A DNA stretch of 64,000 nucleotides from an uncultured Eubacteriales bacterium. GTDB lineage: Bacteria; Bacillota; Clostridia; Christensenellales; CAG-138. The DNA lies in NCBI GenBank assembly GCA_942492885.1, contig OW818651.1:962959-1026958 (forward strand), given 5' to 3'. Of this stretch, positions 16,061 to 63,126 are shown piece after piece. Position 1 is the first letter of the stretch; each line of letters opens with the position of its first letter. The notes under the pieces were generated by a model. That model saw only the letters and a list, made by a program, of their open reading frames with translations. It was not told where the DNA came from and ran no database searches. Made by a program: the position numbers and the translations under genes.

Positions 16061-16061
16061 G

Positions 16062-18520: not shown

Positions 18521-18526
18521 GGGTGG

Positions 18527-18892: not shown

Positions 18893-18907
18893 TTCTTCTT
18901 CCCTCCC

Positions 18908-20104: not shown

Positions 20105-20175
20105 TGCCTTCTTCCTTTCTTCCTTCACGCAGCGCGGGCGCAGTCCATCGCACCCGTCGCTAACCTGCCGAAGCG

Positions 20176-22374: not shown

Positions 22375-22454
22375 CGATTGTACTAAAAACAAGCCCGGGT
22401 GTTTTGCCCGGGTTTTCTTGCGCAAAATATTAGAATAACTTGAGGAGAAACAAT

Positions 22455-43504: not shown

Positions 43505-44734
43505 CTATTCCTTTGCAGCAGGCAGTTTTTTTGACGCGCTGAAAATCCGCGCTGCCGCAAAGAGCAGCACGAAATAAACACCATAATGCCGTTCATAATA
43601 CGTGACACCGCCGATATCCATCACCAGATGTGCAAGCATCAGAACGATGAAAACGTAGACCGTGCGGCGTTCTTCCGCGCGCTCATTGTTGGGATCCTCC
43701 GCCTTTGCGCGCTTGATCACCCGCGCAGCATAGATCAGCGCACCGATCTGACCAACATAATAGATCACCAGCATCGGAATGCCGCCGGAGACCAATAGCT
43801 CGATATAGTTGTTGTGCGCATACGAGCCCAGAGAGCCTTCGAGGAAGCGGAAGCAAGCAAGCCCCCACCCGGTCATCGGGCGCTGCGCAAACCAGTAATA
43901 TGCCGCCTGAACCAGCGTGATGCGCTCAGCCGTTGAGCCACCAAGTCCCTCACCTTTTATGAAGAACAGCCCGACCTCGCGAACATGTGCCAGCGCAGGG
44001 ATGCCCATAAACAAATCGGTAAACAAGACGAGCCCACCCGCAACTGCGCCGAGACCCGCAAGGCCTGCGAGTTTCCAGCCCCATTTCTTCGGGAAGCGAA
44101 CCAGCAGCAGCACGACCATTAGTCCCGCCGCGATCACAAGGCTACCAAACGAAATCGTGAGCACGATTCCGCCCAGCAGAATCGCCAGCGGAATCAGCCA
44201 AAGCAGCCGCCAGCGTTTGTCGATAAGCATGACGCATGCGCCGGTTGCAAATGCGCTGATCAATCCGATGGTGTTCGGATGCACCCCATCCGGCCCGCCA
44301 AGCCGCGTTGTGCTCCAGGGCAACATCCGCTCTTTATAATACAGATAGCAAACGGCGAGCATCGTCGCGATCACATAAATCGCCAGATAGCGCCGCATAT
44401 CCGCCCGCAAAAGAAGGTATTGAAACAGAAAGAAGAAAAAGACCGATGTGATGATCAGCGTCTTGACCATGTCAATCGACACCGCGCGATCAAGCGCCCA
44501 ACCAAACGAAACGATCGCGCTCCAGAGGACGAGCAACGCTGAAACGATCATCCACCAGGAGAAGTACAGGTGTTTCTTCTGCAGCACCAGCAGAGCTGTG
44601 CAGCCAAAGAAAACGAGCATGCTTGCCTGAGAGACCAGCGAATGCGCAAAAACGATTTCAGCCAACAGACAGAAACACAATGCAATCTCAGCAATCCAAG
44701 ATAGGACGCGAAACGTTTTTTCCTTCTGATCCAT
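43505..44734 (-). CDS. O-antigen ligase/polymerase family membrane protein (Wzy_C domain)
   Basis: ORF 43505..44734. Roughly 10 TM helices and the YAHNNYIELLVSGGI block typical of Wzy_C. Confidence 0.8.
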   Translation of the reverse strand: MDQKEKTFRVLSWIAEIALCFCLLAEIVFAHSLVSQASMLVFFGCTALLVLQKKHLYFSWWMIVSALLVLWSAIVSFGWALDRAVSIDMVKTLIITSVFFFFLFQYLLLRADMRRYLAIYVIATMLAVCYLYYKERMLPWSTTRLGGPDGVHPNTIGLISAFATGACVMLIDKRWRLLWLIPLAILLGGIVLTISFGSLVIAAGLMVVLLLVRFPKKWGWKLAGLAGLGAVAGGLVLFTDLFMGIPALAHVREVGLFFIKGEGLGGSTAERITLVQAAYYWFAQRPMTGWGLACFRFLEGSLGSYAHNNYIELLVSGGIPMLVIYYVGQIGALIYAARVIKRAKAEDPNNERAEERRTVYVFIVLMLAHLVMDIGGVTYYERHYGVYFVLLFAAARIFSASKKLPAAKE

Positions 44735-45247
44735 ACTTACGATACCTCCATCCGCTTACAAACGGTTTTGATCCAAGTCACTAAACTCTTGCTTTTTTGA
44801 TCAATCAGAGCGATCATTGAAAGCCAACAATATCAGCAGCTAACCAATCCACGCTCATAAAACTGTAATTTTACAAATAAAAGTATACAGATTTTTGTAC
44901 TTAATTGCAAATGCAAGTTGGCTCTTGAAACGAGCATCCAAACGATTCGAACGTTCGCAAGCGCGATTCGCGCGGCCTTGTAACAATCTGCCGGCACAGA
45001 AAAAACGAGACCGTTTCACTGAACTCTATCCAAATTAGGATGCCGCGGCAAGCACAATTCGCAGTATAATTTGATTAAGAAAAAATCTTTCGATCAGACG
45101 CGCCTTCTGCGCCGCTTGACAGAATCCATCGGTTTTCATATGCTTACAGCACAATGCTCGTCATCAACGATAACTCCATCGCGCATGCAATCAGTAGCGC
45201 TGTTATAGTTACGAGCATATGAGCGAAACAAGACGGAGGTAACATCT

Positions 45248-45493
45248 GTGAAGTGTCCGAATTGCAGAAGTGAAAACATTATCATTCAAGCGGTGACGGA
45301 AGTGAAGGAAAAGCGCAAAAAGGGTTGGGCGTACTGGATCTTCATCGGTTGGTGGTGGGAGATCATCGCGTGGATTCTGTTTGGCGTTTGGAAATTGCTG
45401 GTCGTCCTCTTTGGTAAGAAGACCAGGGTCGTTTCGATCACGCGGTCTGTTGCCGTCTGCCAGAACTGCGGCACACGCTGGAATGTGAAATAG
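45248..45493 (+). CDS. small zinc-ribbon membrane protein (LITAF-like topology)
   Basis: ORF 45248..45493; GTG start after ggaggtaacatct. CPNC ... 30-aa Trp-rich hydrophobic segment ... CQNC. Confidence 0.6.
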   Translation: MKCPNCRSENIIIQAVTEVKEKRKKGWAYWIFIGWWWEIIAWILFGVWKLLVVLFGKKTRVVSITRSVAVCQNCGTRWNVK

Positions 45494-45592
45494 CTATTTT
45501 TCATCGCCCTAGTTTGACGAGTAAATTTTTGCACCAATCATCCCAAAACAACAAAAAACCCGCTAGCTGAGCGAGTTTTTTTGTTATCCGAG

Positions 45593-45620
45593 TGGCTGCG
45601 GAACCAGGACTCGAACCCAG
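45593..45620 (-). repeat. orphan copy of the 3' 28 nt of tRNA-Gln (att-like direct repeat)
   Basis: tggctgcggaaccaggactcgaacccag matches 58844..58871 (tggctgcggaactaggactcgaacctag) at 26/28 positions. It covers CCA, discriminator, 3' acceptor strand and T-arm. Similarity stops there and no anticodon arm follows. Confidence 0.7.
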
Positions 45621-45853
45621 CGCAAATGGCTCAGGCATCGTTTTTATTGATCGTTTTACATGTTCTTTCGACACAGTTTAACGATTGAAGGCTCTACTGC
45701 GGTGTTCACAGCACCGTCGTAGAGCCTTTTTGTGTTTCTATGTGCAAACATTTTTAACGATGGTTCGCTACCTTGTGCGTTATTGAACGATTCTTCAAAG
45801 CAAGTTGTCGTAATAAATCTTTACTTCAGGTGTTGAGGTCTCTTTGACCGCAT

Positions 45854-46774
45854 CTAACAGCTCGTCATGTTTCTCCCGTTTTTCTTTGACAAGTACAGCG
45901 CCTGATCAGCAGCATTTAGTAACTCGGTGCTTGAATCGTTCTTTGCCGGCATTCTCGTTGCAACGCCAACGCTGATCGTCACAAACTTTTCGACGGTTGA
46001 GAATGCGTGCGGAATATTCAATGACGCGACCACCAGGCGTAGCTTTTCAGCAATAATAAATGCGCTATCCTCATTTGTATTCGGTAAAACGCACACGAAT
46101 TCCTCGCCGCCGTATCTGGCGAGAAGATCTGTCTTGCGGACAATCACCTTGCATAAGGCGTGCGCAATTTGAATCAAACAGTTGTCCCCGCCCTGGTGTC
46201 CGTAATTGTCGTTATATTGCTTAAATAAATCGATATCCATCATAATGAGAGAAACAGGTATGGATGCGCGAACCGACAGGTTCCAGGTGGATTCGAGATA
46301 TTCGTTGAACTTGCGGCGGTTAGAAATGCCGGTTAAGCCATCCAAATAGGACATGTTCTCCAGATAATCCCGGTATTGCTTGAGTTCGATGTGCATACCG
46401 ACTCTGGCTTTTACGATGACGGAATTGTATGGCTTCTTGATATAATCAACCGCACCCAGATTGAATCCAAAGATTTCCTCGTCTTCATTCACTTTTCCGG
46501 TCACGAATATGATTGGTATGCCTTTTGTCAGTGAATCAGCCTTCAATCGTCTGCACACCTCGTAACCGTCGATGCCGGGCATGATGACATCCAAAAGGAT
46601 CAAGTCCGGCGGGTTCTCGGAAAAAGCGATCTCAAGCGCCTTTTCTCCGTTGATCGCTGCACGGATTTTGTATTCGGGCTTCAAGAGCTCGGCCAGAATA
46701 CTGATGTTTTCTTTCGCATCGTCAACGATCAATACCGTCGGTTGCTCGAACAGATCATTCATTGTCTGCACCAT
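45854..46774 (-). CDS. response regulator-diguanylate cyclase (REC-GGDEF)
   Basis: ORF 45854..46774. REC domain (VLIVDD ... DLILLDVIMPGIDG ... K), RKTD I-site and ARYGGEEF. An alternative start at ATG 46762 is possible. Confidence 0.9.
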   Translation of the reverse strand: MVQTMNDLFEQPTVLIVDDAKENISILAELLKPEYKIRAAINGEKALEIAFSENPPDLILLDVIMPGIDGYEVCRRLKADSLTKGIPIIFVTGKVNEDEEIFGFNLGAVDYIKKPYNSVIVKARVGMHIELKQYRDYLENMSYLDGLTGISNRRKFNEYLESTWNLSVRASIPVSLIMMDIDLFKQYNDNYGHQGGDNCLIQIAHALCKVIVRKTDLLARYGGEEFVCVLPNTNEDSAFIIAEKLRLVVASLNIPHAFSTVEKFVTISVGVATRMPAKNDSSTELLNAADQALYLSKKNGRNMTSC

Positions 46775-49700
46775 CCAATCTGATATTTAGTTCCGCCGCA
46801 ATCTTTTGTAAAGGTTTCTTAGCTGCATCGAAATCAAACCCGTCGACGCATTGTGCAATTTCTTCAACTTCCCCGGCAAATCTCTTTCCCAATGCGCGTT
46901 TCAGTTTTATGATTGCTTTTTCCGAATCGATATCATCCATCCAGATTAGATGCGCTGCCTCCTGTAGAATCGGTTCAAGGTCCGCAACGGAAATCCCGTC
47001 CTGTTCTTCGAATACATTCGCCTGCTTCTCTTGGCGCACAACCTCCAGGGCATCTATGACCGAACCTAGTGCTGTGTCCAACGCATCCAGTAACGCGGTG
47101 CAGTCCCCGGGTGTCGCCGGGATCAATGCTTTTTCCAGCTGCTCCGATAGAGAGAAAATCTCGTTGGCGGATATATTGCCGGCCACGCCTTTCAATGTAT
47201 GCGCCAACCGTCTGGCTTCTTCTATCTTGTTTTCTGAAATCGCTTGCCGGATATTGGCGGCATAGTGTCTGTATCCGCTCGCAAAATCAACCAGTAATTT
47301 CAGGTAAAGCCTCTTGTTTCCGCCGACGCGATTTAGCCCCTCGCTGATGTCTACTCCCGGTATATTGTCTGGCATACTCGGTTCTACGGTTCTGACGCTT
47401 TCTTTTTTCTGAGCGGTTTCCGAAACTTCTCCGTATCGTTCAAGCTTTGGTTTGATCCATTTCACAATGGTGGAAAAGAGATTCTGAGGGTCGATGGGTT
47501 TGCTGACATAATCGTTCATGCCCGCGGCTTTACACTCCGCCTCCACTCCTTGCATCGCATGTGCTGTCATCGCGATGATGGGCAAATTCAGATTCTTGCG
47601 ATCGGCTCGAATGAATTTTGTCGCTTCGTATCCTCCCATGACCGGCATTTGCAAATCCATCAACACCAAGTCATATGTCTTTGCAGCAATCGCATCGATC
47701 GCTTCTTGTCCGTTGTTGGCGACTTCAACAGTTGCCCCCGCGCTGCCTAGTATTTCCGTAGCGACTTCTTGGTTGATCACATTATCTTCGACCAGAAGGA
47801 TTTTTGCTCCGTCGATTCTAATATCTTTTGGTCCTTCATTCGCATTTCCGCTGCTCTGGATTGTCATGCCGCTCTTATCCATGTCAAACATATTTACAAT
47901 CGTATCGAATAGCAATGATTGGTTGATCGGCTTCATGAGGAAATTTTGAACGCCTATCTTTTCTGCTTTCTTTGCGACCTCTTCTCTGCCAAATGCGGAT
48001 ACCATAATGGCCATGGGCGTACGGCTGATATTTTTATCGTTGAGAATCGCCTTTGCAGCCTCAATCCCGTCCATCTCAGGCATTCTCCAATCCATGATCA
48101 CCAGATCAAACGGTTTGTGTTCGGAATGGTTCTTCACCTCTTGAATCGCTGCTTTTCCCGAAGCAACCGCAACCGCATCCACTCCAAATGCACCGATCTG
48201 TTCCTTGAGAATTTCTCTTGAAACTTCGTTGTCGTCTACGATCAGAACCTTCAGATTCTGCAAGCTTTTTTTGTAAACAGGCTGGTTCGCTTTCTCGTCA
48301 CTCTGAATCTGAAATTCGAGTTCAAAGGAGAATGTGCTCCCTACCCCGAACTCACTCTCGACAGAAATGGTTCCTTTCATCATCTCGACCAGCCGTTTGG
48401 AGATCGTCAGTCCCAGCCCTGTTCCACCGAATCTTCTGGTCACAGAAGTATCCGCCTGCGAGAATGCGGAAAACAGTTTGTCTTTTTGTTCTTTTGTCAA
48501 TCCGATTCCCGTGTCAGAAACAGCAAACTTGATCCGGCATGTTTGATCCGCTTTTTCAACAAGCGATACCTCAACAAGTACATGGCCTTCATTCGTGAAT
48601 TTGACCGCGTTGTTGACGAGATTGAGTAAGACTTGTCCGACCCTCAACGGGTCCCCGATCAAGCAATACGGAACATCCCTTTCGATGTTGTTGATTAATT
48701 CAAAGTTCTTATCCGCCGCCTTATTGGAGTTCATGCTGATGACGTTGTTGATCACATCGTCCAGTCGGAAATCAACTGCCTCAAGCTCCAGCTTTCCTGC
48801 TTCCATCTTCGAGAAATCAAGAATATCATTGATGATCCCGAGCAGCGATTTTGCGGAGGCATCAACCTTGTTGATGTAATCCCTCTGTTTCACAGTCATA
48901 TCTGTCTTTTTCAGCAGCTCAGAAAAACCGATGACGGCATTCATCGGGGTACGGATTTCATGGCTCATATTCGCCAGAAATTCGCTTTTTGCATGTGTGG
49001 CTTCTTCTGCAACCGTCTTTGCGTTGATCAGTTCTTCTTCGTTTTTCTTTTGCTGCGTGATATCCCGCAAAATGCAGATCGAATGCCAACCATTGCTCAT
49101 TTCTACTGCGGATAAGGAGAGCTGCACAGGGACAGTCGTCTGGTTCTTTCTTGTCATATCCAGCTCAAACGTCTCCCCGAGGGCAGTTCCTTTCTCGCCG
49201 AAGTGCGGTTTTGGAAACTCGTCAAGCGGTAATTCATTGTGGAATCGCGAAACGAGCAGCCCCTGAGGGTTCTTCCCGATTGCTTCTTGGTTCGAGTACC
49301 CAAAGATTCGCGATGCGGCAAGATTCCAATAGGAGATCGTACCGAAAGAATCCAACATCATAATGGCATCGTAAGCGGAGTCCGTAATGGAACGCATCTG
49401 GATTTCGCGGTCTTTTAGCGCGTCCTCCGTTTGTTTGCGTTTTGTGATGTCGCGGACGGCAGCCATCCTTAGCCTTGAACCGGCAGTCCCCATGGACTTG
49501 CCTTCCACTTCCGCAAGGAATATGGTTCCGTCCTTTTTTAACAGGCTGATCTCAAGAACTCGGCCGGAGTCCTGCGATATGCTTTCGGCAACTGCCGCCC
49601 TATCGTCCGGGCAGATAAAATCGATGATGTTCCTGCCCAACACTTCGCTCTGGTCATATCCCAACATCTTCGCGAGGGAAGGATTCGCGTCCTTTATAAT

Positions 49701-50195
49701 GCCATTCTCGTGGATCACGATTCCTTCGATTGTGATCTCCGCAAGCAGGTGAAATCTGGCCTCCCGCTCTTTCGTTTCCAGCTCCGCCTTTTTTTGGTTC
49801 GTAATATCGGTTGAAATACCCCAAGTGCCAACAATGTTTCTTTCGCGATCATACAGCGGATATCTGGACACGATAGACCAAAGCAGATCACCGTTTGCAA
49901 ACGCAGAGTGTTCCTCCTCGCCGATGATCGGAACCCCGGTTTTCATGATCTCCTGCTCATTGTGAAACGATTTTGTGGCGTGCTCTTCGGAGAAGAAATC
50001 GAAATCCGACTTGCCAATCACGTCCTTCATATCCGTTTTGTTGAGCCTTCTTAGTTGCGCATCGCTCACAAAGAGAAATCGCGATCCCCTATCTTTGATA
50101 TAGATCGAATCGCTTGTGCTCTTCATCATAATTTCGAATACATCTTTATAGCTAAGAGATACGCATTTGAAAAAATCATCCGCAATGCTGCTCAT
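46755..50195 (-). CDS. cytoplasmic multi-PAS hybrid histidine kinase with two receivers and an Hpt domain
   Basis: ORF 46755..50195 with RBS gaggtg. H-box SHEIRTPMNAV, G2 box GTGLGLTISK, two REC domains (VLIVDDNEV.., ILLVEDNVINQ..) and Hpt HTLKGVAGN. Confidence 0.92.
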   Translation of the reverse strand: MSSIADDFFKCVSLSYKDVFEIMMKSTSDSIYIKDRGSRFLFVSDAQLRRLNKTDMKDVIGKSDFDFFSEEHATKSFHNEQEIMKTGVPIIGEEEHSAFANGDLLWSIVSRYPLYDRERNIVGTWGISTDITNQKKAELETKEREARFHLLAEITIEGIVIHENGIIKDANPSLAKMLGYDQSEVLGRNIIDFICPDDRAAVAESISQDSGRVLEISLLKKDGTIFLAEVEGKSMGTAGSRLRMAAVRDITKRKQTEDALKDREIQMRSITDSAYDAIMMLDSFGTISYWNLAASRIFGYSNQEAIGKNPQGLLVSRFHNELPLDEFPKPHFGEKGTALGETFELDMTRKNQTTVPVQLSLSAVEMSNGWHSICILRDITQQKKNEEELINAKTVAEEATHAKSEFLANMSHEIRTPMNAVIGFSELLKKTDMTVKQRDYINKVDASAKSLLGIINDILDFSKMEAGKLELEAVDFRLDDVINNVISMNSNKAADKNFELINNIERDVPYCLIGDPLRVGQVLLNLVNNAVKFTNEGHVLVEVSLVEKADQTCRIKFAVSDTGIGLTKEQKDKLFSAFSQADTSVTRRFGGTGLGLTISKRLVEMMKGTISVESEFGVGSTFSFELEFQIQSDEKANQPVYKKSLQNLKVLIVDDNEVSREILKEQIGAFGVDAVAVASGKAAIQEVKNHSEHKPFDLVIMDWRMPEMDGIEAAKAILNDKNISRTPMAIMVSAFGREEVAKKAEKIGVQNFLMKPINQSLLFDTIVNMFDMDKSGMTIQSSGNANEGPKDIRIDGAKILLVEDNVINQEVATEILGSAGATVEVANNGQEAIDAIAAKTYDLVLMDLQMPVMGGYEATKFIRADRKNLNLPIIAMTAHAMQGVEAECKAAGMNDYVSKPIDPQNLFSTIVKWIKPKLERYGEVSETAQKKESVRTVEPSMPDNIPGVDISEGLNRVGGNKRLYLKLLVDFASGYRHYAANIRQAISENKIEEARRLAHTLKGVAGNISANEIFSLSEQLEKALIPATPGDCTALLDALDTALGSVIDALEVVRQEKQANVFEEQDGISVADLEPILQEAAHLIWMDDIDSEKAIIKLKRALGKRFAGEVEEIAQCVDGFDFDAAKKPLQKIAAELNIRLDGADNE

Positions 50196-50651
50196 ATTCC
50201 ACCTCGTTTATTTTCCATAATGTACCACCGCTTCATCTTGGGTTTGAGTTCGCTAATTTCAGAAGCAATCTGTAATAAAACATGCTTCCGTTCATTTTTT
50301 CACTATTCTATTCATACGCGTCTTGAAGAAAATATTTGTCAAATCAATAGCACTCCAGAAGTTAAAAGTAACGATCACAAATCGAATTATAACAGACAAA
50401 GCGAGATAAACGCTATCCCACCCATTAGACTCGAATCAATCCGAAACCATTCGAATTCCCGTCTCATGAAGCTCGCTTCCGACGCTACATGTGATTGTCT
50501 TTAGCCCCTATCCCGGCTTGCAAAAAACGGTTGGATATCATTGGCATATGGTAATCAAAGACTCATCCATGTTTTCTTCTGACAATCTATTCGCAATCAT
50601 ATTGTATTTTGCTTCTTCCTGCAACTCCAGCCGAATAATGCATCGCTCGCG

Positions 50652-53600
50652 TCAATGATTTGCCTTTGCTTCCGTCAAGGATGAACCGGTTCCCGGCAAT
50701 ATTGTTCTGATAAAAGCGTCTACTACTTTTTGATCAAATTGACTACCCGCACAGCGTATCAATTCCTCAACTGCACATTCTATGCTGATCGCACCCCTAT
50801 ATGGCCTGCTTACCGTCATTGCATCGAAAGAATCAGCAACAGCGATGATCTTTGCTTCGATCGGTATCTGCTTTTCAGTCAACCCAGCCGGATAACCGCA
50901 CCCATCAATTCTTTCGTGATGCGCTTTGACTATCGGAACAATATCTAGATATTCATCAACACTTGCTAATATTCGCGCACTACGAATTGGATGTTGCTTT
51001 ATCAATTCCCATTCTTGGTCGCTTAAGCGTTCGGTTTTGTTCAATATGCTCTCGTCTATTCCTATCTTACCGATATCGTGTAGCGCGCCGGCAACTCTGG
51101 TCTTAGCAACGGTGGCATCGTCAAGCCCCATTTCACTCGCAATTGCCGTCGCGATGGTGCTTACTCGAATCGAATGCTGCTGTTCTCTTTCACTTTTCTC
51201 AAACAAAGTACTCATGATAGCATCGATAACATTGCTGCGCTTGCTCGTGTTCTCCAAGAATTTGCGACGGTTGATATATGTTTCAACTTCCTTCACGAGC
51301 GCATCCATGTCCTGCCCTTGGAATGTTTGGCAGCTGTATCCAAACGTTGCGGTCAACACAGCATCAACGTCGCGTCCTTCGTTGTCCTTGACGATTATTT
51401 GGGTGCACGCCTGCAGCTCTCCTGCAAGTTTCTTCGCCTTTGCTTCCGAGCTACGGGTAAGAAGGACGGCAAACTCGTCTCCGCCAATACGTGCCAGAAC
51501 CGCATCTTTGGGGATTTGTTTTCGTATATCGATTGCAAACTGCTGTATTGCAAGATCCCCGGAGTGATGGCCAAACGAATCGTTGATCAGTTTTAGTCCA
51601 TTTAAGTCGCCTGATACGATCGCTAACGGATAATGCTTTCCGGTGTTTTTATCAGCATATTCGTTTTCAAAATACCTTCTGTTATATGCATCCGTCAAGT
51701 AATCATGATAAGCAAGATATTCAATGTTTTCTTCCGCTCGCTTCTTATCCGTGATATCCAGAAAAACTATAACGCCCGCGCTGATAACGCCCATTGGATT
51801 CCTTATTGGCGCAGCATGAGCAAGCACATACCGATTCTCGAGGTCGTCACGTTGAATGATGAATTCATCACTTCTAGTCTCTCCAAACAAAAATGCTCTG
51901 GCTAAAATGAACTCTTCCTCTTCATATGGTGTTCCATCAAGGTGAAGAAGGCTCCACCTCTTGATATAACTGAGCTTGTCACTATCTTTTTGAAGCTCTT
52001 CTTCCGTTTTATTTCGAATAAGAAGACCGGCTTTGTTAACATATCGCAACTTCCCGCTAGGCGCGTCTACAATAACGATTCCAGCCTGGCTGTTTTCAAA
52101 TGCCGCCTTCAACAATGCTTGAGATTCCGAGAAGGCTTCTTCTGCTTGCTTTCTCTCCGTAATATCCAACGAAGCAATCTGAATGCCAATATTCTGCCCT
52201 GACGCGCCCGTTACTCTCGTAAATACACTTGAAAACCACTTGTGTGCTGAATTCATAACCAGATGGTCCAAATATTCTTGCGGTTTATCGCTTTCAATCG
52301 CTCGTTTAATTCGCGCAAAATAAATTTCTGCTTCTTCATTTGGGAACAATGTACGGATCGATTTGCCAACATAATCTTCTAGTTTTCCGCCAATATTCTC
52401 AAGCGCTTTCTGGTTATACGAAATTACAGTTCCATCTGTTGTATAATACCCAATTCCCACGCCGGAGTTCTCAAAGAGATATTTGTAGCGCTCTTCACTT
52501 TCGATTAGCGCTTTCTCAGCCGCCTTTTTCTCTGTTGTATCAACGAAGCTGATCAATACTCCTGAAATATCTCCATTTTTATCAATGATGTTGAATCCAT
52601 TTACTTTAATCCATTTGATTTTTCTTGGCTCTTCAAAAATGATACCCATTTCATAATCAACAAGAGCCTGTTTGCCTTTGTACACAAGCGAAAACGGGTA
52701 TGCATCTACCGAGAGAGGTTCGCCGAATCTGTCGCAAAAGTGCCACGACTCATCCGAAACATGTTTGTTTTGAATTTGATCTGCTGTAAAGCCCAAAAGT
52801 TCTTCTGCTAAAGAGTTGCTATACGAAATCGATGAGTCAACATTATGTAGGACAATAGCAACCTGTAGATGATCTAATAAAAGTCTTCGTGCATGTTCGC
52901 TTTCTTTTAATGCTGCTTCTGCTTTTTTTTGATTGGTGATGTCCTGTAAAATACAGTGCGTTTGTACGAAATTTCCGCCGAAATCATAACCAATTTTGCC
53001 TTCAAACGCTATAAACAATCGGTTGCCGTTTTTCGCCAGCATTTCGAACTCGCTGTGAATAAATCCCTGCGCCTTGAATATCGGAAACCGATTACGGAAT
53101 CCTTCCACATATTCAGGGCAAAGAAAATCGCCGAACCATTTGCCGATGACTTCCTCGCGCGTATACCCAAGCGTATCGAGCCATTGCTGATTGATCTCAA
53201 TAAAGCGACCGTCAAAATCGAGAGATTGATACCCAAGCGGCGCTCTATTAAATAAAAGTTGAAACCGTTCTTCGCTTTGTTTGAGTTCGATTTCTATTTT
53301 TTTCCGGTTTGTTATGTCTTGCGCCGCGCCCCAAAGCGCGACGATCTTCCCGCTTGAATCGGTCTTTGCCTCCCCGCGCACCCACATCCATCCATTCGAT
53401 CCGTCAAACGTTACCGTTTTTAACTCCAACTCATATGGAATTCCCAGCATTTTCGTGTGTTCAATCGCTGTCGTTAATTGGATCCAACTTTCCGGAGTAA
53501 ATAGTTTCATATGCTCCGAATAAGGAGGCGGTGGCAATGCAGGATCAAACCCATACATCTTATATAACTCTTCTGACCAAACAACTTGATTTGTGATCAA

Positions 53601-54515
53601 ATCCAGATTCCATGTCCCAAGATGCGCTATGCGTTGAGATTCCAGCAATGCAGCTTCTAATCGCTTTTGTTCCGTAATATCTATGCCAATCCCGGTGAAG
53701 TACTTCTGTCCATTCATCAAGAGGGGAACCCCGCTTGAACGCGTCAACATTTTCCCGCCGTTTTTAAGTTTCAACCATGCTTCTACTTCGCCGTATCCTT
53801 TTTCGAAAACTTCACGAACCGCGGCATTAACCTTTAAAAGATCCTTTTGATCAAACCATTGATCAAGGCTCATATGTGCCAATTCCTCAGTGGAATACCC
53901 CGTCATCGTTTCATGCTTATTGTTCCACTTGATCAACTTTCCGCTCTCATCATAAACATACAAGTAACCCGGTATGCTATCGAAGATCGCTTCTATGAGT
54001 GCTTGCTCTCTCTTCAAAGCCTCCACGGTCTTCACTAGTGCCGTATTGGCGGCGAGCAGATCTCTCGTTTTATCTTCGACGAGTGCCGAAAGTATTTGCT
54101 TCTCGTCACGCTTCTGGATGTTTGCAGCGCGAATTTTGAGCATTGCCCGAATTTGAGCGGTCAGCTCGATGTCATCGATCGGTTTTGTTAAAAACGCCTC
54201 TGCGCCACACTCAAGCGCTCTGATTCGGCTATCTTTATTACTTCTGATTGCCGTGACAAACACCACCGGAATATCGCAAAGTTTCTCGTCGCTTTTCAGC
54301 CTGCGGCATACTTCGTATCCGTCCATCCCGGGCATGATGATATCGAGCAGAATGATATCCGGTTCTTCGCTGGCCGCTAACTCAAGTCCTTTTTGTCCAT
54401 TAAGCGCGGAAAGAACCCTTGTATTTGGAAATGCCTCCAGAATGAGCGTGTTTAGAATCGTCAGATTATCCTGATTATCATCAATCATCAGAATTCTCAT
54501 CGTTCTACTTTCCAT
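50652..54515 (-). CDS. REC - multi-PAS - GGDEF - HD-GYP c-di-GMP turnover protein
   Basis: ORF 50652..54569; start set at ATG 54515 (MESRTMRILMIDD), 7 nt after aggagg. REC domain (DIILLDIIMPGMDG), several PAS units, RIGGDEF, HDIGK and HHERIDGCGYP. Confidence 0.9.
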   Translation of the reverse strand: MESRTMRILMIDDNQDNLTILNTLILEAFPNTRVLSALNGQKGLELAASEEPDIILLDIIMPGMDGYEVCRRLKSDEKLCDIPVVFVTAIRSNKDSRIRALECGAEAFLTKPIDDIELTAQIRAMLKIRAANIQKRDEKQILSALVEDKTRDLLAANTALVKTVEALKREQALIEAIFDSIPGYLYVYDESGKLIKWNNKHETMTGYSTEELAHMSLDQWFDQKDLLKVNAAVREVFEKGYGEVEAWLKLKNGGKMLTRSSGVPLLMNGQKYFTGIGIDITEQKRLEAALLESQRIAHLGTWNLDLITNQVVWSEELYKMYGFDPALPPPPYSEHMKLFTPESWIQLTTAIEHTKMLGIPYELELKTVTFDGSNGWMWVRGEAKTDSSGKIVALWGAAQDITNRKKIEIELKQSEERFQLLFNRAPLGYQSLDFDGRFIEINQQWLDTLGYTREEVIGKWFGDFLCPEYVEGFRNRFPIFKAQGFIHSEFEMLAKNGNRLFIAFEGKIGYDFGGNFVQTHCILQDITNQKKAEAALKESEHARRLLLDHLQVAIVLHNVDSSISYSNSLAEELLGFTADQIQNKHVSDESWHFCDRFGEPLSVDAYPFSLVYKGKQALVDYEMGIIFEEPRKIKWIKVNGFNIIDKNGDISGVLISFVDTTEKKAAEKALIESEERYKYLFENSGVGIGYYTTDGTVISYNQKALENIGGKLEDYVGKSIRTLFPNEEAEIYFARIKRAIESDKPQEYLDHLVMNSAHKWFSSVFTRVTGASGQNIGIQIASLDITERKQAEEAFSESQALLKAAFENSQAGIVIVDAPSGKLRYVNKAGLLIRNKTEEELQKDSDKLSYIKRWSLLHLDGTPYEEEEFILARAFLFGETRSDEFIIQRDDLENRYVLAHAAPIRNPMGVISAGVIVFLDITDKKRAEENIEYLAYHDYLTDAYNRRYFENEYADKNTGKHYPLAIVSGDLNGLKLINDSFGHHSGDLAIQQFAIDIRKQIPKDAVLARIGGDEFAVLLTRSSEAKAKKLAGELQACTQIIVKDNEGRDVDAVLTATFGYSCQTFQGQDMDALVKEVETYINRRKFLENTSKRSNVIDAIMSTLFEKSEREQQHSIRVSTIATAIASEMGLDDATVAKTRVAGALHDIGKIGIDESILNKTERLSDQEWELIKQHPIRSARILASVDEYLDIVPIVKAHHERIDGCGYPAGLTEKQIPIEAKIIAVADSFDAMTVSRPYRGAISIECAVEELIRCAGSQFDQKVVDAFIRTILPGTGSSLTEAKANH

Positions 54516-57465
54516 ACAACACCTCCTGAATCTTCTCAAAGAATTCCGCCTCGATGATGGGCTTGGCAATAAATCCGTTGAACCCGTACGCCAGAATAGC
54601 TTCGCGATCCTGTCGCATAGCGCTTGCCGTCAATGCAATCACGGGTACACTCATCAATTTTAAAATGCTTCTAATCTGTTTAAATGCATCGATTCCGCTG
54701 GCATCCGGCAAAGCGATATCCATCAAGATGAGATCAGGAACATGTTTCACTGCCATCTCAATACTTTCTTTCGCGTTTGTCGCTTCTAGGACGACATAAT
54801 CATCCCGCAACAATGCTTTGATGGTGATCCTGTTGTCCGCGTTATCTTCCACTACGAGGACGACCGGTTTCCACTGTATTGGTCTTGCGATTGGTGCGGG
54901 CGTCTCTTTTTCCGCAGTTGCATGATCGAGCATACCCAGGATCGCTTTTTCAAGTTCTTTGGCGTTCACATCGCCCTTTTGAATGAGTTGATGGATGTTA
55001 TTACGTTTCAAAAACTTCAACTCGTCTTTGGTTACTTGTTTTGCCGTCAGAATCAGTACAGGTACATGTGCCGTTATCTCCGCATTGCGCAAAATTTCAA
55101 GTACACGAAAACCATCCACATCCGGCATCATCAGATCAAGAATCATTGCGTCTGGAATCGCATGCTCGATGATTTCGAATGCTTCTCCAGCATTATGCGC
55201 AATGAAGACCTGACAGCCAATTGATTCCACCAAGTCTTTTATTTGGATGATTGCTGATTCATTGTCTTCGACCAATAAGATGCTGTGCTCGTTTAAGCGT
55301 GACTCGTTTCGAGTCGAAAACTGAGCGGTTACCGCCTTAGGCCCGACTGTTGGATACTGCACTATGGCTGAGTCGCACTGAATTGGTAGCGTCAGCGTAA
55401 ACTCAGACCCCACATTCAGCGTACTCGTAACCGAAATCGTCCCTCCCAGCATGTCTGCATATTTTTTGGAGATCGCCAACCCAAGCCCCGCGCCTCCAAA
55501 CCGCCGGGACGTGCTCCCGTCGGCTTGGCGAAACTCATCAAAGATGTACGGTAGTTGCTCCTGCGGGATTCCGATTCCGGTATCACTTATCTTGATACAG
55601 ATCTGTGCTTCGCGGAGTTCAGAAGCAACTATGACGCTTCCCTTTTCGGTGAACTTGACGGCGTTTCCAATCAAGTTTTGCAGGATATGGCGAAATTTAT
55701 CGACATCAGTATAGATCTGAATTGGATTGCCAGACTCATACAGCAGTTCAATCGATTTTTGTTCGGCTTGCGGATGTATCATCTCTACGAGATCGCTTAG
55801 GACTGTATTCGCGTTAAACTGCTCGATCTCGATCTCTTCACGTCCCGCCTCAATGCGAGATATGTCAAGAATATCATTGATCAGCACCAGCAGGTTTTTT
55901 CCGTTACGTTCAATGATTTCTAAAAATCCGAGTTCTTCATCCGGTATCTTGCTCGCAAGTCTGCGGCTTAAAACACCCGTGAGCGCAATGACAGAATTGA
56001 GCGGCGTGCGCAGCTCATGACTCATATTAGACAAGAAATTTGTCTTTAACCGACTGGCTTCATCCAGTTGTTTCTTCTGAAATTCCAGCTCGGTGTTTTG
56101 CTCGGATAATTCCGCAGTTTGCATCTCGAGCTCTTTTGCTTGCTGCTGCAGTTCTGTGTTTTTGTCCTGTAGCCTTTGTGAGAACTCTTGAATCTTCTCG
56201 GACGCCATAATCGAGCTCAACCGCGCTGAGATTTCGTTGAGCAACCCGCTTATTAACCGGACGGAAGCCGGCGAATAACGTTTGATACTTGCAATCGAGA
56301 TGATCGAAATCACATCTTTTTCACTGATAATTGGTATTGTAATGATTTCTCTTGCACGGAACTCTCCGCTGACCGTTGAGAAAACAATCTTCGAATCCGC
56401 TGGAATATCCGTTACGTGCTGCACCGCTTTTGATGCCAATGCGGTTCCGAACTCACCTTCCTTTCTCGAAGTTGAGAATGAGGGCAAGCGCTCCATGCTC
56501 GCGCCGATCGATTCATAGGGTTCAAATCTGTTTTTCTGCTCGTTTGGAAAATAGATTGCAGCAATTTGCGAATCGGTCAGCTGCATCAGCGTTTTTAGTA
56601 ATTCCGAGCAGAACGGCCGCAAAGAATCCTCATGAAACATAACCGAAGAAATCTTCGTAATTTTATCTTTATGTGCTGTCTCTGCTTCTATGGTTTCAGC
56701 CATAGCATTAAACGCCTTTGATAACGTACCGATTTCGCTTTTCGCTTCATACTGCACGCGTGTGTTCAGCTCGCCCTTGTGCATCGCTTCTGCAGCGCCA
56801 GTGATCTCTCTCAATGGTGGAACCATGCTCATTCTCATGAAATAACCGATGCCCAGTAATGCAAGCGCTGCCGCAGAACTCAGAAGCGCCGTTCGCAAAA
56901 TAGTTTGACTTCTTTGCGTCCTGGCACCCTGGTAAAACTCATCGCCTTTGCTTTTTGAGAAATCACTGATGTTTAAAATTGTGCTCAAAACTTTGTCGGC
57001 TTGCAATCCTCCAGCGCCGTCGGCCTTTACCCTGATTCGAGCTTCATCTACTTGCCCCGCATACAACATGCGGATTGTTTCGGCTCGTATGATACTCCAC
57101 AGTGACAATTCGTTGAGCGTCAAATCAATATCGCTTTGTGGTCCGAGATAGCTCTTGTATAGAACGTCTACTTGGCGGTAAGCGTCCGCTTCAAATGAAT
57201 CAATATCCTGAATTAGCTTGTCGGCATTTTGCTGATTCTCTTCCAACACTAGCTGCATCATATTTCGATGGATGAGAAGAACGTCTGCCTCGATTTCTGC
57301 TACCGCTCTGCGCGACGTGAGAGGATGTTCGTAAAGTCCAGCGGTGTTGACCCACATTCCCTCAATCGAACTCAATGCGCTAACAGAAAGCAGCACGATC
57401 AAAAGCATAATCATTGCCAACCAGATGTATATTTGTTTCGATATTGTAAGGTTTTTCATTTTCAT
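54505..57465 (-). CDS. membrane hybrid histidine kinase (MCP-style N-terminal sensor, HAMP, GAF, HisKA/HATPase, two receivers)
   Basis: ORF 54505..57465. TM helix - periplasmic helical region - TM helix - HAMP (PPLREITGAAEAMHKGELN), H-box SHELRTPLNSV, GGAGLGLAISK, then two REC domains. Confidence 0.9.
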   Translation of the reverse strand: MKMKNLTISKQIYIWLAMIMLLIVLLSVSALSSIEGMWVNTAGLYEHPLTSRRAVAEIEADVLLIHRNMMQLVLEENQQNADKLIQDIDSFEADAYRQVDVLYKSYLGPQSDIDLTLNELSLWSIIRAETIRMLYAGQVDEARIRVKADGAGGLQADKVLSTILNISDFSKSKGDEFYQGARTQRSQTILRTALLSSAAALALLGIGYFMRMSMVPPLREITGAAEAMHKGELNTRVQYEAKSEIGTLSKAFNAMAETIEAETAHKDKITKISSVMFHEDSLRPFCSELLKTLMQLTDSQIAAIYFPNEQKNRFEPYESIGASMERLPSFSTSRKEGEFGTALASKAVQHVTDIPADSKIVFSTVSGEFRAREIITIPIISEKDVISIISIASIKRYSPASVRLISGLLNEISARLSSIMASEKIQEFSQRLQDKNTELQQQAKELEMQTAELSEQNTELEFQKKQLDEASRLKTNFLSNMSHELRTPLNSVIALTGVLSRRLASKIPDEELGFLEIIERNGKNLLVLINDILDISRIEAGREEIEIEQFNANTVLSDLVEMIHPQAEQKSIELLYESGNPIQIYTDVDKFRHILQNLIGNAVKFTEKGSVIVASELREAQICIKISDTGIGIPQEQLPYIFDEFRQADGSTSRRFGGAGLGLAISKKYADMLGGTISVTSTLNVGSEFTLTLPIQCDSAIVQYPTVGPKAVTAQFSTRNESRLNEHSILLVEDNESAIIQIKDLVESIGCQVFIAHNAGEAFEIIEHAIPDAMILDLMMPDVDGFRVLEILRNAEITAHVPVLILTAKQVTKDELKFLKRNNIHQLIQKGDVNAKELEKAILGMLDHATAEKETPAPIARPIQWKPVVLVVEDNADNRITIKALLRDDYVVLEATNAKESIEMAVKHVPDLILMDIALPDASGIDAFKQIRSILKLMSVPVIALTASAMRQDREAILAYGFNGFIAKPIIEAEFFEKIQEVLYGK

Positions 57466-58296
57466 TTAAACCTCCGCTTTCTTTTGGAAAATCGGTGATT
57501 GCGGAACGACAGCGCGTAATCCACTATATTTTAAAACGTTCTGCCTCTCTGCTTCCCCGGTTACTAAATATCCATTCCCGGTAAGGGCGTTTGCTAATTT
57601 CTTCAGAATTAACCCCTGCGATTTACTTTCATAATAGAAAAGAACATTGCTGCAGATGATAAGGTCAAAGTTCCCAAATATACTCTCCTGAGGATTTGCG
57701 GAGAGCGGATCTAATAGATCATAACGGGAGAAACTTACACGCTGTTTCAAACTTTCGCAAACGGTGTAGGTGTTGCCCGATCTCTCAAAGAACTGATTGA
57801 TGTCTCTTGCTCGAATCGTTTGAATGGCCTCTTGACTGTATTCTCCGTTGAGCGCGAATCCCAATGCATATTCCGAAATATCCGTTGCGATGATTCGATA
57901 TCGAAATGGGTCTCTCCGCTTATCCGCTGCATTTTCCAGCATCATCGCGATTGAGTATGCTTCCTGCCCTGTTGAACATCCAGCCGACCAAACCCGAAGC
58001 TCACTGCCAAACGGTTTACGATTGATGAGATTCGGAAGAAGCCACTGTTCTAAATTTGCAAAAGTAAGTGCGTTTCTAAAGAATTCGGTATATGTAATAT
58101 TCAAAGACCGAACAAGTAAATCAGCCTCCGGTTTATTGCTGGATATGATTTCAAGATAACCCTGAATATCATTGACCCCAAGAGCTACACACCTGCGATC
58201 GACAGCTTGCTTAAAAAATGCATCATCAAACTGCGCGAGATCAATCCCGTACAGAGCTTTTAACGTTTCTATAATTGATTGCAACTCATTTTGCAT
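57466..58296 (-). CDS. CheR-type SAM-dependent protein-glutamate O-methyltransferase
   Basis: ORF 57466..58296 with YTEFFRN and VWSAGCSTGQEAYSIAMML blocks. Its stop directly abuts the kinase start. Confidence 0.88.
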   Translation of the reverse strand: MQNELQSIIETLKALYGIDLAQFDDAFFKQAVDRRCVALGVNDIQGYLEIISSNKPEADLLVRSLNITYTEFFRNALTFANLEQWLLPNLINRKPFGSELRVWSAGCSTGQEAYSIAMMLENAADKRRDPFRYRIIATDISEYALGFALNGEYSQEAIQTIRARDINQFFERSGNTYTVCESLKQRVSFSRYDLLDPLSANPQESIFGNFDLIICSNVLFYYESKSQGLILKKLANALTGNGYLVTGEAERQNVLKYSGLRAVVPQSPIFQKKAEV

Positions 58297-58811
58297 ATGG
58301 GCTCCAATTCGATTTATTTGAATTGCGCGGACTGAAATGATTGGTTTGAAAGTCTCATTTGTAGATTCTTTTTGTGCGCTTCAAATGCTGCCCCGCAATC
58401 AAAAAACGATGGGATCGTTCACGTAAATTGTTAGTCACGCGAGCGTTACTATTTAGTAATAAAAGGCTCGAGATATTGTAGACCAACTGCGATTTATAAA
58501 ACACACTGACATGCAACAAGCACACACATGTTCTGATTTCATTGTAGTATCCAACACAATCCACCGTCAATGTTTATCTGCTTTATCGGACCGCGCCGGA
58601 CACGTTCAGGCGGGAAAGTTTAGCCATCTACGTGGACAAATCGATCAAGAGCGAATAGGTCTGTGAAACCTGATTGATTCATTCGGATTCGAACGTAATG
58701 GGTATTACATATTTCGTTACCAATTGTATTGATATCCCGTTGCACAAGACTCTGACATGTTGGCTAAATACATGATATTCTAGCGGTATTTACAATTACT
58801 TGTTTTTCAAA

Positions 58812-58838
58812 CAAAAAAAGCGCCCTTATAAGGCGCTC
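58812..58838 (-). terminator. intrinsic terminator of the tRNA operon
   Basis: Minus strand reads agcgcc-ttataag-ggcgct followed by ttttttt, 5 nt after the tRNA-Gln CCA. Confidence 0.7.
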
Positions 58839-58843
58839 AATTT

Positions 58844-58917
58844 TGGCTGCGGAACTAGGACTCGAACCTAGACAATACGAGTCAGAGTCGTAGGTGCTAC
58901 CATTACACAATTCCGCA
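58844..58917 (-). tRNA. tRNA-Gln (anticodon CUG)
   Basis: Hand-folded cloverleaf: acceptor TGCGGAA/TTCCGCA (U1:A72, G73, encoded CCA), D stem GTGT/GCAC, anticodon stem TACGA/TCGTA with loop CT-CTG-AC, T arm CTAGG-TTCGAGT-CCTAG. Confidence 0.95.
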
Positions 58918-58928
58918 ATGTGGATGTT

Positions 58929-59107
58929 GAGTATCCCGAAGTGCCGTTCGCCTTCTGTATAACACCCGCCTCTCGGCAGGTGGGTACGCCGTGATTGACG
59001 CGATCTTCCCATCCGTAATGGGCCTGATCTTGTCTTCTCAACGAAACGCTCCCGAAGTTACTTTGTGGGTTTATAACCGAAAACGTCACGCACACCGCAG
59101 GATATTC
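58929..59107 (-). ncRNA. candidate rod-shaped structured RNA (6S RNA-like) in the tRNA-Val/tRNA-Gln spacer
   Basis: No credible ORF. The 5' GAAUAUCCUGCGGUG pairs with the 3' CACUUCGGGAUACUC (13/15). Further in, CGUU..UAUAA.CCC pairs with GGGUGUUAUA..AACG. There is an apical CCCAU-UACGG-AUGGG hairpin flanked by GAUC/GAUC, and a GNRA-capped side hairpin CCUGCC-GAGA-GGCGGG. Confidence 0.4.
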
Positions 59108-59118
59108 AATTTTGAAGG

Positions 59119-59195
59119 TGGTGGGGTTAATTGGGATCGAACCAACGACCTCTACGATGTCAACGTAGCGCTCTGACCAGCTGAGCTATAACCCC
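59119..59195 (-). tRNA. tRNA-Val (anticodon GAC)
   Basis: Hand-folded cloverleaf: acceptor GGGGTTA/TAACCCC, A73, encoded CCA, D arm GCTC-AGCTGGTCA-GAGC, anticodon stem CTACG/CGTAG with loop TT-GAC-AT, T arm GTTGG-TTCGATC-CCAAT. Confidence 0.95.
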
Positions 59196-59208
59196 GAGTG
59201 CACATATT

Positions 59209-59236
59209 ATTATACACATGGGGGATGAAAAAGCAA
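59209..59236 (-). promoter_or_regulatory. promoter of the tRNA-Val / RNA / tRNA-Gln operon
   Basis: Minus strand reads TTGCTT, 16 nt spacer ending in TGTG, then TATAAT, about 14 nt upstream of the tRNA-Val 5' end. Confidence 0.55.
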
Positions 59237-59670
59237 GACGTTTTTTCTCTTTTTTAGACAGAAAAATCAAGTGCGAATTTTGCATATTTTACGATTGTTA
59301 CCGTGTGATAAGCGGACAAATCAGCAAAAACGACAGTTTTCCGCGTAATTGCTCGATTTTTTTGCGAACCATACCGGATGATGCGCGCTGGCAGTTGCCT
59401 GTCTCGCATGCAGAAAAATGCATTTCTATAAATATTTTTGTAGGTTTCGCGCGAGAAAAGAACGCGTTTGAGGAAGCTTTTTGTGTGTAACAGGAAGTTC
59501 ACTTTCTATCCATTGCTAATCCACAAGCGCGGAGTACATTATACCCAGAGCAAGGACATAGACTGACAAACCCCCAATATTACCTCCCATCCCATCCCAA
59601 TCAAAAGCCTCTACCAGAAACGGTAGGGGCTTTTGATTTTTGGGACTTTGTTCGTGAGGGGTGGGTTCGC

Positions 59671-59794
59671 GGGCGGATAATATCCGCCCCTACAGCGGCT
59701 TGCGCGGATTCTCAACCAAACGTCGTGAACGTTCTTCGTATTCTCTTTCACAAGTTCACCCGCCGTACAAAGTAGGGGCGGATATCATCCGCCC
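59671..59794. repeat. MITE-like palindrome-ended interspersed element, copy 2
   Basis: Ends gggcggataatatccgcccctac and gtaggggcggatatcatccgccc are inverted repeats (1 mismatch). The interior (ctcaaccaaacgtcgtgaacgttcttcgtattctctttcacaagttcacccgcc) aligns with copy 1. Confidence 0.6.
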
Positions 59795-59864
59795 GCATCA
59801 AAAGTCGTTCAGGGCTTTTGATTTTTGGCCTTCTTTCTTCTTGTACGCGTATTTCTCCTGATTT

Positions 59865-60503
59865 TTACACTTTCACCACCGGATGTCGCAGGATCGTTTT
59901 GAGTTTCTCCGGCGCGGATTTGGAGGGATCGCCCAGATAGATCTCATGGTGGCGGCGAAGGCCGAGGTCGTTGCGATAGCCGTTCTCCGCGAGAAACGCA
60001 TCCATCCGCTCCACGCTTGCAGGCTCCGCATCATAGGGACCGATGTGCATCATCTGCACGCAAAGCCCCTCGCGAAAGCGCAGCAGCCGCGCGCGGGACG
60101 TGTCCAGCGCCTTTTTGCGGCGCACCTCACCGCAAGCCCACTCAAACACCGTTTCATCCACGAACTCCGGCTGGCGGATCATGCTCGTCCACTCAAATTT
60201 ATCCTTGTTGTTGTAGTCCACGCCCGGAACCCCGCCCGACATCTGCCAGAGCCCCTCCAAGGGGGCAACTTTGTACGCATAGAATCCCGCCAGCTGCGTC
60301 TTGCTTTTGTCGCTCATCTTGATTGTATAGCTCAGCGCGTAGAGAAGCCCCACGGCCTTGCCGTATTCTCCGTCGAGATCGTTGGGGTTACCCTTGCCAT
60401 CTACCGCGAGAAACACCATCTCCGGCACGTCGATGATCGCGGGGACTGTTTTGGGTTGATAGAGTTCTTTGTATTCTTTTATGAATTCGAATTGTTGATT
60501 CAT
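59865..60503 (-). CDS. GyrI-like small-molecule-binding domain protein
   Basis: ORF 59865..60521; start set at ATG 60503 (MNQQFEFIKEYKELYQP) after aggaga. VFLAVDGKGNPN and HHEIYLGDP are blocks I associate with this family. Confidence 0.78.
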   Translation of the reverse strand: MNQQFEFIKEYKELYQPKTVPAIIDVPEMVFLAVDGKGNPNDLDGEYGKAVGLLYALSYTIKMSDKSKTQLAGFYAYKVAPLEGLWQMSGGVPGVDYNNKDKFEWTSMIRQPEFVDETVFEWACGEVRRKKALDTSRARLLRFREGLCVQMMHIGPYDAEPASVERMDAFLAENGYRNDLGLRRHHEIYLGDPSKSAPEKLKTILRHPVVKV

Positions 60504-62978: not shown

Positions 62979-63108
62979 AGTTGATGTTCAAGCAGAAGCG
63001 CCCGCTTCTCACCTGCCGACGATTGTCAGGCACGGTAGCAACACTCTTTCATTACTGATGGTTTGTTTATAGTGGGTGCAGCACAGCTTGCGCCCACTAT
63101 TTTTATTT
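62979..63108 (+). promoter_or_regulatory. ribosomal protein L20 leader-type attenuator region
   Basis: A ~150-nt leader between the promoter and the infC RBS ends in an intrinsic terminator. This position and architecture match the Firmicute L20 leader. Confidence 0.5.
63069..63105 (+). terminator. leader (attenuator) terminator upstream of infC
   Basis: tagtgggtgc-agcacagctt-gcgcccacta followed by tttttattt, ending 8 nt before the ggagg RBS. Confidence 0.6.
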
Positions 63109-63126
63109 ATATGGAGGTGTACTGCC

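Follow-up and report, generated by a model that had tools for sequence, protein, structure and literature searches.

What does a chemotaxis-type methyltransferase do in a gene cluster that encodes no chemotaxis receptor for it to methylate? The question is raised by a 64,000-nucleotide (nt) stretch of contig OW818651.1 from an uncultured Eubacteriales bacterium of the Christensenellales (GenBank assembly GCA_942492885.1, positions 962,959 to 1,026,958), which we call the window and number from its first letter. A CheR-family gene there heads a run of five signalling genes, which an earlier reading, made from the sequence alone, had taken as one methylation-tuned phosphorelay and in which it had raised the adjacent kinase as a possible methyl acceptor. 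Our analysis shows that the first three genes form a conserved cassette and, by analogy, points to the adjacent kinase as the most plausible substrate. We think it reasonably likely that CheR methylates the helix of this kinase and so sets its output to a cyclic di-GMP (c-di-GMP) protein, as RsbM does with RsbK in Bacillus cereus. The five genes, from open reading frame (ORF) calls, Pfam matches and motifs, are as follows (aa, amino acids).

57466–58296, minus strand: gene 1, CheR-family protein-glutamate O-methyltransferase, 276 aa (ORF call, Pfam)
54505–57465, minus strand: gene 2, membrane hybrid histidine kinase, 986 aa (ORF call, Pfam)
50652–54515, minus strand: gene 3, REC, four PAS, GGDEF and HD-GYP domains, 1287 aa from the ATG at 54515 (Pfam)
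46755–50195, minus strand: gene 4, soluble hybrid kinase, 1146 aa (ORF call, Pfam)
45854–46774, minus strand: gene 5, REC-GGDEF diguanylate cyclase, 306 aa (Pfam, motifs)

The earlier description of this locus stands in its particulars. The coordinates and junctions of the five co-directional minus-strand genes agree with the ORF calls, every domain it named was recovered by Pfam scans of all five proteins, and the motifs it quoted are all present. The kinase ATG abuts the CheR stop with 0 nt between them. Gene 3, whose longest ORF runs from a TTG at 54569 to 50652 (minus strand, 1305 aa), likely starts at the ATG at 54515 and then overlaps the kinase stop by 11 nt, an overlap also present in the gene calls of relatives. 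A 456-nt gap (50196–50651) separates genes 3 and 4, and genes 4 and 5 overlap by 20 nt.

The first three genes recur together across a wide range of bacteria. A homologue search returned 1794 CheR relatives at E<1e-10, the closest of which (92–69% identity) come from metagenomes and Christensenellaceae metagenome-assembled genomes (MAGs), and at least 547 genomes with CheR relatives emerged from a scan in which each species was represented once. No record in public assemblies matched the window CheR exactly. The seven neighbourhoods inspected individually (84% to 47% CheR identity), among them those of Acetobacterium bakii and a Sphaerochaeta MAG, all carry CheR, a kinase of about 990 aa with 4HB-HAMP-GAF-HK-REC-REC architecture (HK, histidine kinase) and a REC-PAS-GGDEF-HD-GYP protein. 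Cassette counts come from a domain-query analysis of the best 80 of the at least 547 loci, with 34–71% CheR identity. Of the 75 loci that extend 1.5 kb or more downstream, 73 have a GAF-containing hybrid kinase directly after CheR; the other two are a copy decayed by insertion sequences (IS) and a contig end. Junctions are typically overlaps of 0 to 4 nt, with 11 nt between kinase and regulator. The loci come from more than ten phyla, with hosts in the Christensenellaceae, Erysipelotrichaceae, Acetobacterium and Sphaerochaeta and, as a second group, the Verrucomicrobia, Planctomycetota, Deltaproteobacteria/Myxococcota, Bacteroidales, Gemmatimonadota and one archaeal (Methanomicrobiales) MAG.

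The third gene is REC-first in 60 of 63 loci and falls into two output classes. A c-di-GMP class (28 loci, in Bacillota and Sphaerochaeta) is nearly always REC-(PAS)-GGDEF-HD-GYP. A kinase-output class, found in the second group of hosts, comprises 32 REC-first loci, 24 of which were scored as REC followed, after intervening sequence, by HK. Pfam scans of eight kinase-class third genes gave REC-PAS-HK(-REC), with one protein truncated at a contig end, and no SpoIIE/PP2C domain in any of the eight. Downstream of the cassette, no related locus examined carries counterparts of genes 4 and 5 (a hybrid kinase-Hpt protein and a REC-GGDEF protein); unrelated genes, such as those for B12-binding or URO-D proteins and transporters, stand there instead. 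Because genes 1–3 recur in relatives and genes 4 and 5 do not, the conserved functional unit is genes 1–3, with genes 4 and 5 outside it, and the five-gene unit of the sequence-only reading contracts to three.

A pairing of this kind has a precedent. RsbK of B. cereus is a hybrid kinase with CHASE3-HAMP-GAF-S-helix-HK-REC architecture. Its operon also encodes RsbM, an orphan methyltransferase of the CheR type, which methylates the RsbK signalling helix (S-helix) (PMC4574943). Methylation and the REC domain jointly hold the kinase off and repress signalling, with no methylesterase involved; the same report counts 127 RsbK-like kinases in 10 phyla and calls the module widespread (PMC4574943). 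The genomic association of RsbK with CheR is credited to de Been and colleagues (as cited in PMC12848376). The novelty implied by the earlier reading is thereby lost: RsbM and RsbK already provide a demonstrated case in which an orphan enzyme of the CheR type methylates the hybrid kinase encoded next to it (PMC4574943, citing Chen et al. 2012; PMC12848376).

As a proxy for the B. cereus pair we used an RsbK-RsbM-RsbY locus of Niallia taxi, obtained from a plasmid collection by tblastn with the N-terminal half of the window kinase. It encodes a 4HB_MCP_1-HAMP-GAF-HisKA-HATPase-REC kinase, then CheR, and a convergent REC-SpoIIE gene. Its CheR has homologues of 64–68% identity in Priestia megaterium and Lysinibacillus, and the RsbK kinases of both genera appear in S3 Table of PMC4574943.

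The cassette resembles the Rsb module in its kinase, which has a sensor of the 4HB_MCP clan (CHASE3 there, 4HB_MCP_1 here) followed by HAMP, GAF, a heptad helix, HisKA, HATPase and REC, in the placing of this kinase beside an orphan CheR-type methyltransferase gene in one operon without CheB, and in having a separate REC-first output protein. The two modules differ in the clade of the methyltransferase (26% identity between the window CheR and the Niallia RsbM orthologue), in gene order (CheR then kinase here, kinase then CheR there) and in the second REC domain of the window kinase. The signalling helix of the window kinase is about 19 residues shorter than that of the Niallia kinase and has single glutamates rather than EE pairs. 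The outputs also differ: a REC-PAS-GGDEF-HD-GYP protein acting on c-di-GMP here, and there a REC-PP2C protein, RsbY, with the RsbV/RsbW/sigma-B partner switch. A plasmid of Deinococcus sp. QL22 (locus L093, 3460–11436) carries a 1828-aa multi-HAMP kinase of the RsbK type, then a CheR 48% identical to the Niallia RsbM-type enzyme, then another phosphorelay protein, so pairing of the RsbM type also occurs outside Bacillota and on a plasmid.

We compared two further systems. In the Wsp system of Pseudomonas (WspA–F and WspR), as here, a 4HB_MCP_1 sensor is combined with a methyltransferase of the CheR type (WspC) and with a c-di-GMP output by way of a REC-GGDEF protein (PMC8846402). Its WspA, however, is a true methyl-accepting chemotaxis protein (MCP), its kinase WspE is of the CheA type, and it includes CheW-like proteins and the CheB WspF; the window has none of these, and in the cassette a single HisKA-type polypeptide serves as both sensor and kinase. 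Fusions of CheR or CheB-CheR to PAS-kinases (Rhizobium etli p42f RHE_RS26810, Cupriavidus plasmids, and loci L052 and L059) likewise join a CheR domain to a two-component kinase outside chemotaxis; in these, unlike the separate CheR and membrane 4HB-HAMP-GAF kinase of the cassette, CheR is fused, often together with CheB. In L052 (1780–4641) and L059 (2046–4691), from two MAGs, a large CheB-CheR fusion with PAS proteins after it is encoded upstream, at a distance of a few kb from the cassette, so that a second CheR-type system stands beside the first.

Is the window CheR a working enzyme, and of which kind? Gene 1 matches PF01739, the CheR domain that binds S-adenosylmethionine (SAM), at 157 bits and the CheR_N domain borderline (24.7 bits against a cutoff of 27), and it carries TEFFRN at residue 70 and SAGCSTGQEAYS at residue 104. 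Over about 240 residues it matches the CheR structures of B. subtilis (5FTW) and Salmonella (1AF7 and 1BC5), with E values from 1e-27 to 2e-24. Degeneracy of its SAM-binding residues, which the earlier reading had named as a ground for giving up its idea, was not what we found: R74 (FFR), D139 (ATD), Y221 (NVxFY) and R35 of the N-domain are kept in 116–119 of the 119 clade members. We take these to be the equivalents of residues that Djordjevic and Stock reportedly found to be functionally important in Salmonella CheR. The window CheR looks catalytically active.

Against the NCBIfam equivalog for chemotaxis CheR, the protein scores 110 bits with a cutoff of 435 and is not a member. With a profile of its own clade, B. 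subtilis CheR reaches 158 bits, Escherichia coli CheR 134 bits and RsbM-type enzymes about 110–111 bits, and an RsbM-family profile gives the window CheR 97 bits as opposed to 139 bits for B. subtilis CheR. In a neighbour-joining tree, the CheRs encoded upstream of kinases form one clade, apart from RsbM. By these sequence comparisons the clade is separate from RsbM and from the chemotaxis CheRs. Plasmid tblastn matches of the window CheR were tried as a canonical outgroup and set aside; they were only distant (about 31% identity), and both of those examined were CheR domains fused to kinases.

We then consider the company that this enzyme keeps. Searches with phmmer (E<1e-3), using the E. coli Tar signalling domain, CheA P3–P5, CheW and the CheB methylesterase domain as queries, gave no match to an MCP signalling domain, CheA, CheW or CheB methylesterase in any window ORF of 80 aa or more, and Pfam scans of 25 window ORFs found no che domain besides the CheR itself, in agreement with the absence of these genes from the 64 kb as first noted. 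Within 10 kb of the cassette loci, MCP matches occur in 5, CheB matches in 4 and CheW matches in 0; with CheB-like genes near so few CheR-kinase loci and a 0-nt gap between CheR and kinase in the window, the pair has the character of an orphan pairing.

The proposed substrate site lies in gene 2. The kinase consists of a first transmembrane segment, an extracytoplasmic 4HB_MCP_1 sensor, a second transmembrane segment, HAMP, GAF (a weak Pfam match, 25 bits), a signalling helix, HisKA with H483, HATPase_c and two REC domains. It is colinear with the Niallia RsbK-type kinase from sensor through REC (29% identity over 764 aa, E 2e-86), and its helix heptads align with the SEELQxQ heptads of that protein.

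56059–56160, minus strand: signalling-helix heptads, kinase residues 436–469, NTELQQQ AKELEMQ TAELSEQ NTELEFQ KKQLDE (alignment of 65 orthologues)

In an alignment of 65 kinases from many phyla, the heptad-spaced glutamates are conserved at 92–98% (E438 in 60 of 65, E445 in 64, E452 in 62 and E459 in 62), with the Q at +4 kept in 61–64 of the 65 and the L at +1 equally conserved. They stand just upstream of the kinase H-box. By analogy with RsbK, we propose E438, E445, E452 and E459 as candidate methyl-accepting sites. Chen and colleagues are said to have placed the RsbK sites in 2012 at E439 and E446, 7 residues apart and about 60–66 residues before H505, which would fit such heptads.

Several observations weigh against methylation of this helix by CheR, and the first of them concern the enzyme. 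By sequence, the window CheR and RsbM are not orthologues, and by profile the window CheR is no closer to RsbM than to chemotaxis CheRs, so the transfer of function from RsbM rests on analogy and synteny. The visible DNA is 64 kb of a genome, and MCPs may be encoded elsewhere. Both points favour an ordinary chemotaxis CheR that methylates such distant MCPs and stands beside the kinase by chance, as does the full CheR fold with its catalytic residues. We consider this very improbable, given the kinase adjacency and translational coupling in 73 of 75 loci from more than ten phyla, the rarity of MCP and CheB and the complete lack of CheW near the loci, and the equivalog score far below its cutoff. 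The sequence-only reading had asked whether this clade might follow a chemotaxis cluster elsewhere in the genome; we find it outside such a cluster and tied in cis to the kinase, also in Sphaerochaeta MAGs, a genus of which the two sequenced isolates are without chemotaxis genes (PMC3372971).

The remaining points concern the helix. Heptads of the form E-L-x-x-Q also occur in RsbK-type kinases of Streptomyces and Novosphingobium that have no adjacent CheR; the pattern is thus not diagnostic of methylation, and we rejected it as a mark of CheR-linked kinases. The window helix has single glutamates, as opposed to the EE pairs of RsbK-type kinases and MCPs. Regular-expression scans for the MCP methylation consensus [ASTG][ASTG]xx[EQ][EQ]xx[ASTG][ASTG] and for a C-terminal pentapeptide of the NWETF type found no match to either in any of the five proteins, which disposes of the marks that the earlier reading had proposed to look for and leaves single heptad-spaced glutamates as candidates.

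Might the methyl group go elsewhere in the cassette, to the REC-PAS output protein, to a REC or HAMP segment of the kinase, or to a site outside the signalling helix? The REC-first third gene is linked as tightly as the kinase, kinases without a linked CheR have the heptad glutamates too, and no site has a canonical methylation motif. We nevertheless regard another acceptor as unlikely. CheR enzymes act on glutamates of helical coiled coils, and across the cassette loci it is the output domains that vary (GGDEF-HD-GYP or HK) and the kinase that stays constant. In addition, the sole experimental precedent puts the methyl groups on the kinase S-helix (PMC4574943).

How would methylation of the kinase helix reach c-di-GMP? 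The kinase would sense an extracytoplasmic signal through its four-helix bundle and possibly a cytoplasmic one through GAF, and the signal would pass through HAMP and the heptad signalling helix to the DHp histidine, H483. The co-transcribed CheR, with SAM, would methyl-esterify one or more of the four candidate glutamates, which are predicted to share one helical face, neutralizing charge and shifting the equilibrium between kinase on and off states. By analogy with RsbK, methylation may tip the kinase towards the form that its REC domains inhibit. The kinase would then phosphorylate the N-terminal REC of the translationally coupled gene 3 protein, shifting the balance between c-di-GMP synthesis and hydrolysis. 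Since the cassette encodes no esterase, methylation would probably act as a slow gain or set-point rather than as fast reversible adaptation.

Gene 3 is equipped for such an output. Its Pfam domains are REC, four PAS, GGDEF and HD_5 (HD-GYP), and its motifs are intact, with GGDEF at residue 1029, HDIGK at 1164 and HHERIDGCGYP at 1217; the I-site position reads PKDA, with no RxxD. The earlier proposal that the locus controls both synthesis and breakdown of c-di-GMP holds to this extent, as the protein looks bifunctional.

Do genes 4 and 5 belong to the same relay? Gene 4 has three PAS domains, HisKA, HATPase, two REC domains and an Hpt, and gene 5 is a REC-GGDEF protein with an RKTD I-site followed by GGEEF. 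A single five-gene, methylation-tuned phosphorelay would run from the REC domains of the cassette kinase to the gene 4 Hpt and on to the REC-GGDEF protein. In its favour, gene 4 supplies the Hpt that the cassette kinase, with its two REC domains, lacks; the five genes run in one direction, our scan found no strong terminator in the 456-nt gap, and the only convincing one that follows is 3′ of gene 5.

45553–45581, minus strand: terminator-like hairpin after gene 5 (terminator scan)

We think this relay improbable. None of the related loci examined has genes 4 and 5 after the cassette, and none showed an Hpt nearby, so the cassette works without them; its own junctions, moreover, are a 0-nt gap and an 11-nt overlap, unlike the 456 nt that precede gene 4. 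A separate two-component pair, with an input of its own to the c-di-GMP pool, is the likeliest reading of genes 4 and 5, the gene 5 partner probably being the gene 4 kinase.

The cassette itself may have travelled. One Christensenellaceae MAG (OY771363.1) holds it three times (L001/L010, L005/L011 and L006/L012). Two of these copies have a phage-type integrase gene immediately upstream. An IS (rve transposase) splits one copy, and what is left of another, decayed one is CheR, a 4HB fragment and a truncated GGDEF-HD-GYP protein. The three copies, two beside integrases and two disrupted or decayed, suggest that the cassette is horizontally mobile. After each of the three come B12-binding or URO-D (methyltransferase-like) genes.

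In the window, the cassette sits directly downstream of a tRNA-Val/6S RNA/tRNA-Gln unit (58844–59195), separated from cheR by a terminator and then by a promoter-like site.

59119–59195, minus strand: tRNA-Val, first gene of the unit
58929–59106, minus strand: 6S RNA, full-length match at 63 bits against a gathering score of 46 (Rfam scan)
58844–58917, minus strand: tRNA-Gln, last gene of the unit
58818–58838, minus strand: strong terminator ending the tRNA/6S unit (terminator scan)
58541–58570, minus strand: promoter-like site TTGACG-18-TACAAT upstream of cheR, a pattern match only, with 10 of 12 consensus positions (consensus scan)
62984–63111, plus strand: ribosomal protein L20 leader, 64 bits, above the gathering score (Rfam)
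32056–32955, minus strand: stand-alone PAS-GGDEF protein (Pfam)

The spacers within the tRNA/6S unit are only 11–12 nt, and it looks like a co-transcribed unit that requires processing. The promoter-like site lies downstream of the terminator that closes this unit, and the number of such sites in the region equals chance expectation. Rfam scans of the two intergenic gaps gave only sub-threshold chance matches, with no c-di-GMP riboswitch among them. The L20 leader is an element typical of Bacillota and, with the nearest CheR relatives, points to a Bacillota genome, probably one akin to the Christensenellaceae. The GC content is 0.42–0.48 over the signalling genes (about 44000–60000) and 0.55–0.60 in much of the window, which would fit a horizontal origin of this DNA; the stretch of low GC runs up to the tRNA genes.

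A cell-surface polysaccharide region (23869–44734, Pfam) lies just downstream of the module, with acyltransferase_3, MBOAT, GT1, dTDP-sugar enzymes (NTP_transferase, RmlD and a dehydratase), two GT2 and a Wzy-type ligase/polymerase. These genes are plausible targets of c-di-GMP, which is speculation on our part. The ORFs at 16005–17927 (plus), 18434–20416 (plus) and 21016–22470 (minus) have no Pfam match at E<1e-5, and overlapping ORFs on opposite strands leave the true coding strand of 16005–22470 uncertain.

What the locus adds is breadth and a variant. The concept of orphan CheR-type methylation of an adjacent CHASE3/4HB-HAMP-GAF hybrid kinase was published in 2011–2015, and by comparison with RsbM and RsbK the cassette is most likely a variant of that known mechanism, not a new principle. 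In the literature that we found, the distinct CheR lineage, the reversed gene order and the second REC domain appear to be uncharacterized, as do the shorter single-glutamate helix, the REC-PAS-GGDEF-HD-GYP or REC-PAS-HK outputs and the very broad distribution. More tentatively, and short of what we would call probable, the cassette may represent a second CheR lineage, separate from RsbM and dedicated to kinase-helix methylation, carried as a mobile cassette through more than ten bacterial phyla and at least 547 species-level genomes and providing an esterase-free set-point without chemotaxis machinery.

CheR genes are routinely annotated as chemotaxis genes, but in the window and in hundreds of genomes, some of them of lineages without chemotaxis genes, CheR is hard-wired to a sensor kinase; recognition of the cassette corrects such annotations. 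The RsbK/RsbM paradigm extends past sigma-B control to c-di-GMP and kinase-cascade outputs, with four specific glutamates now named as candidates. If both CheR lineages were separately recruited to RsbK-like kinases, receptor methylation would have been adopted repeatedly for the tuning of histidine kinases and would not be a speciality of chemotaxis. Confirmation would make covalent methylation a general way for two-component systems to set their gain without an esterase.

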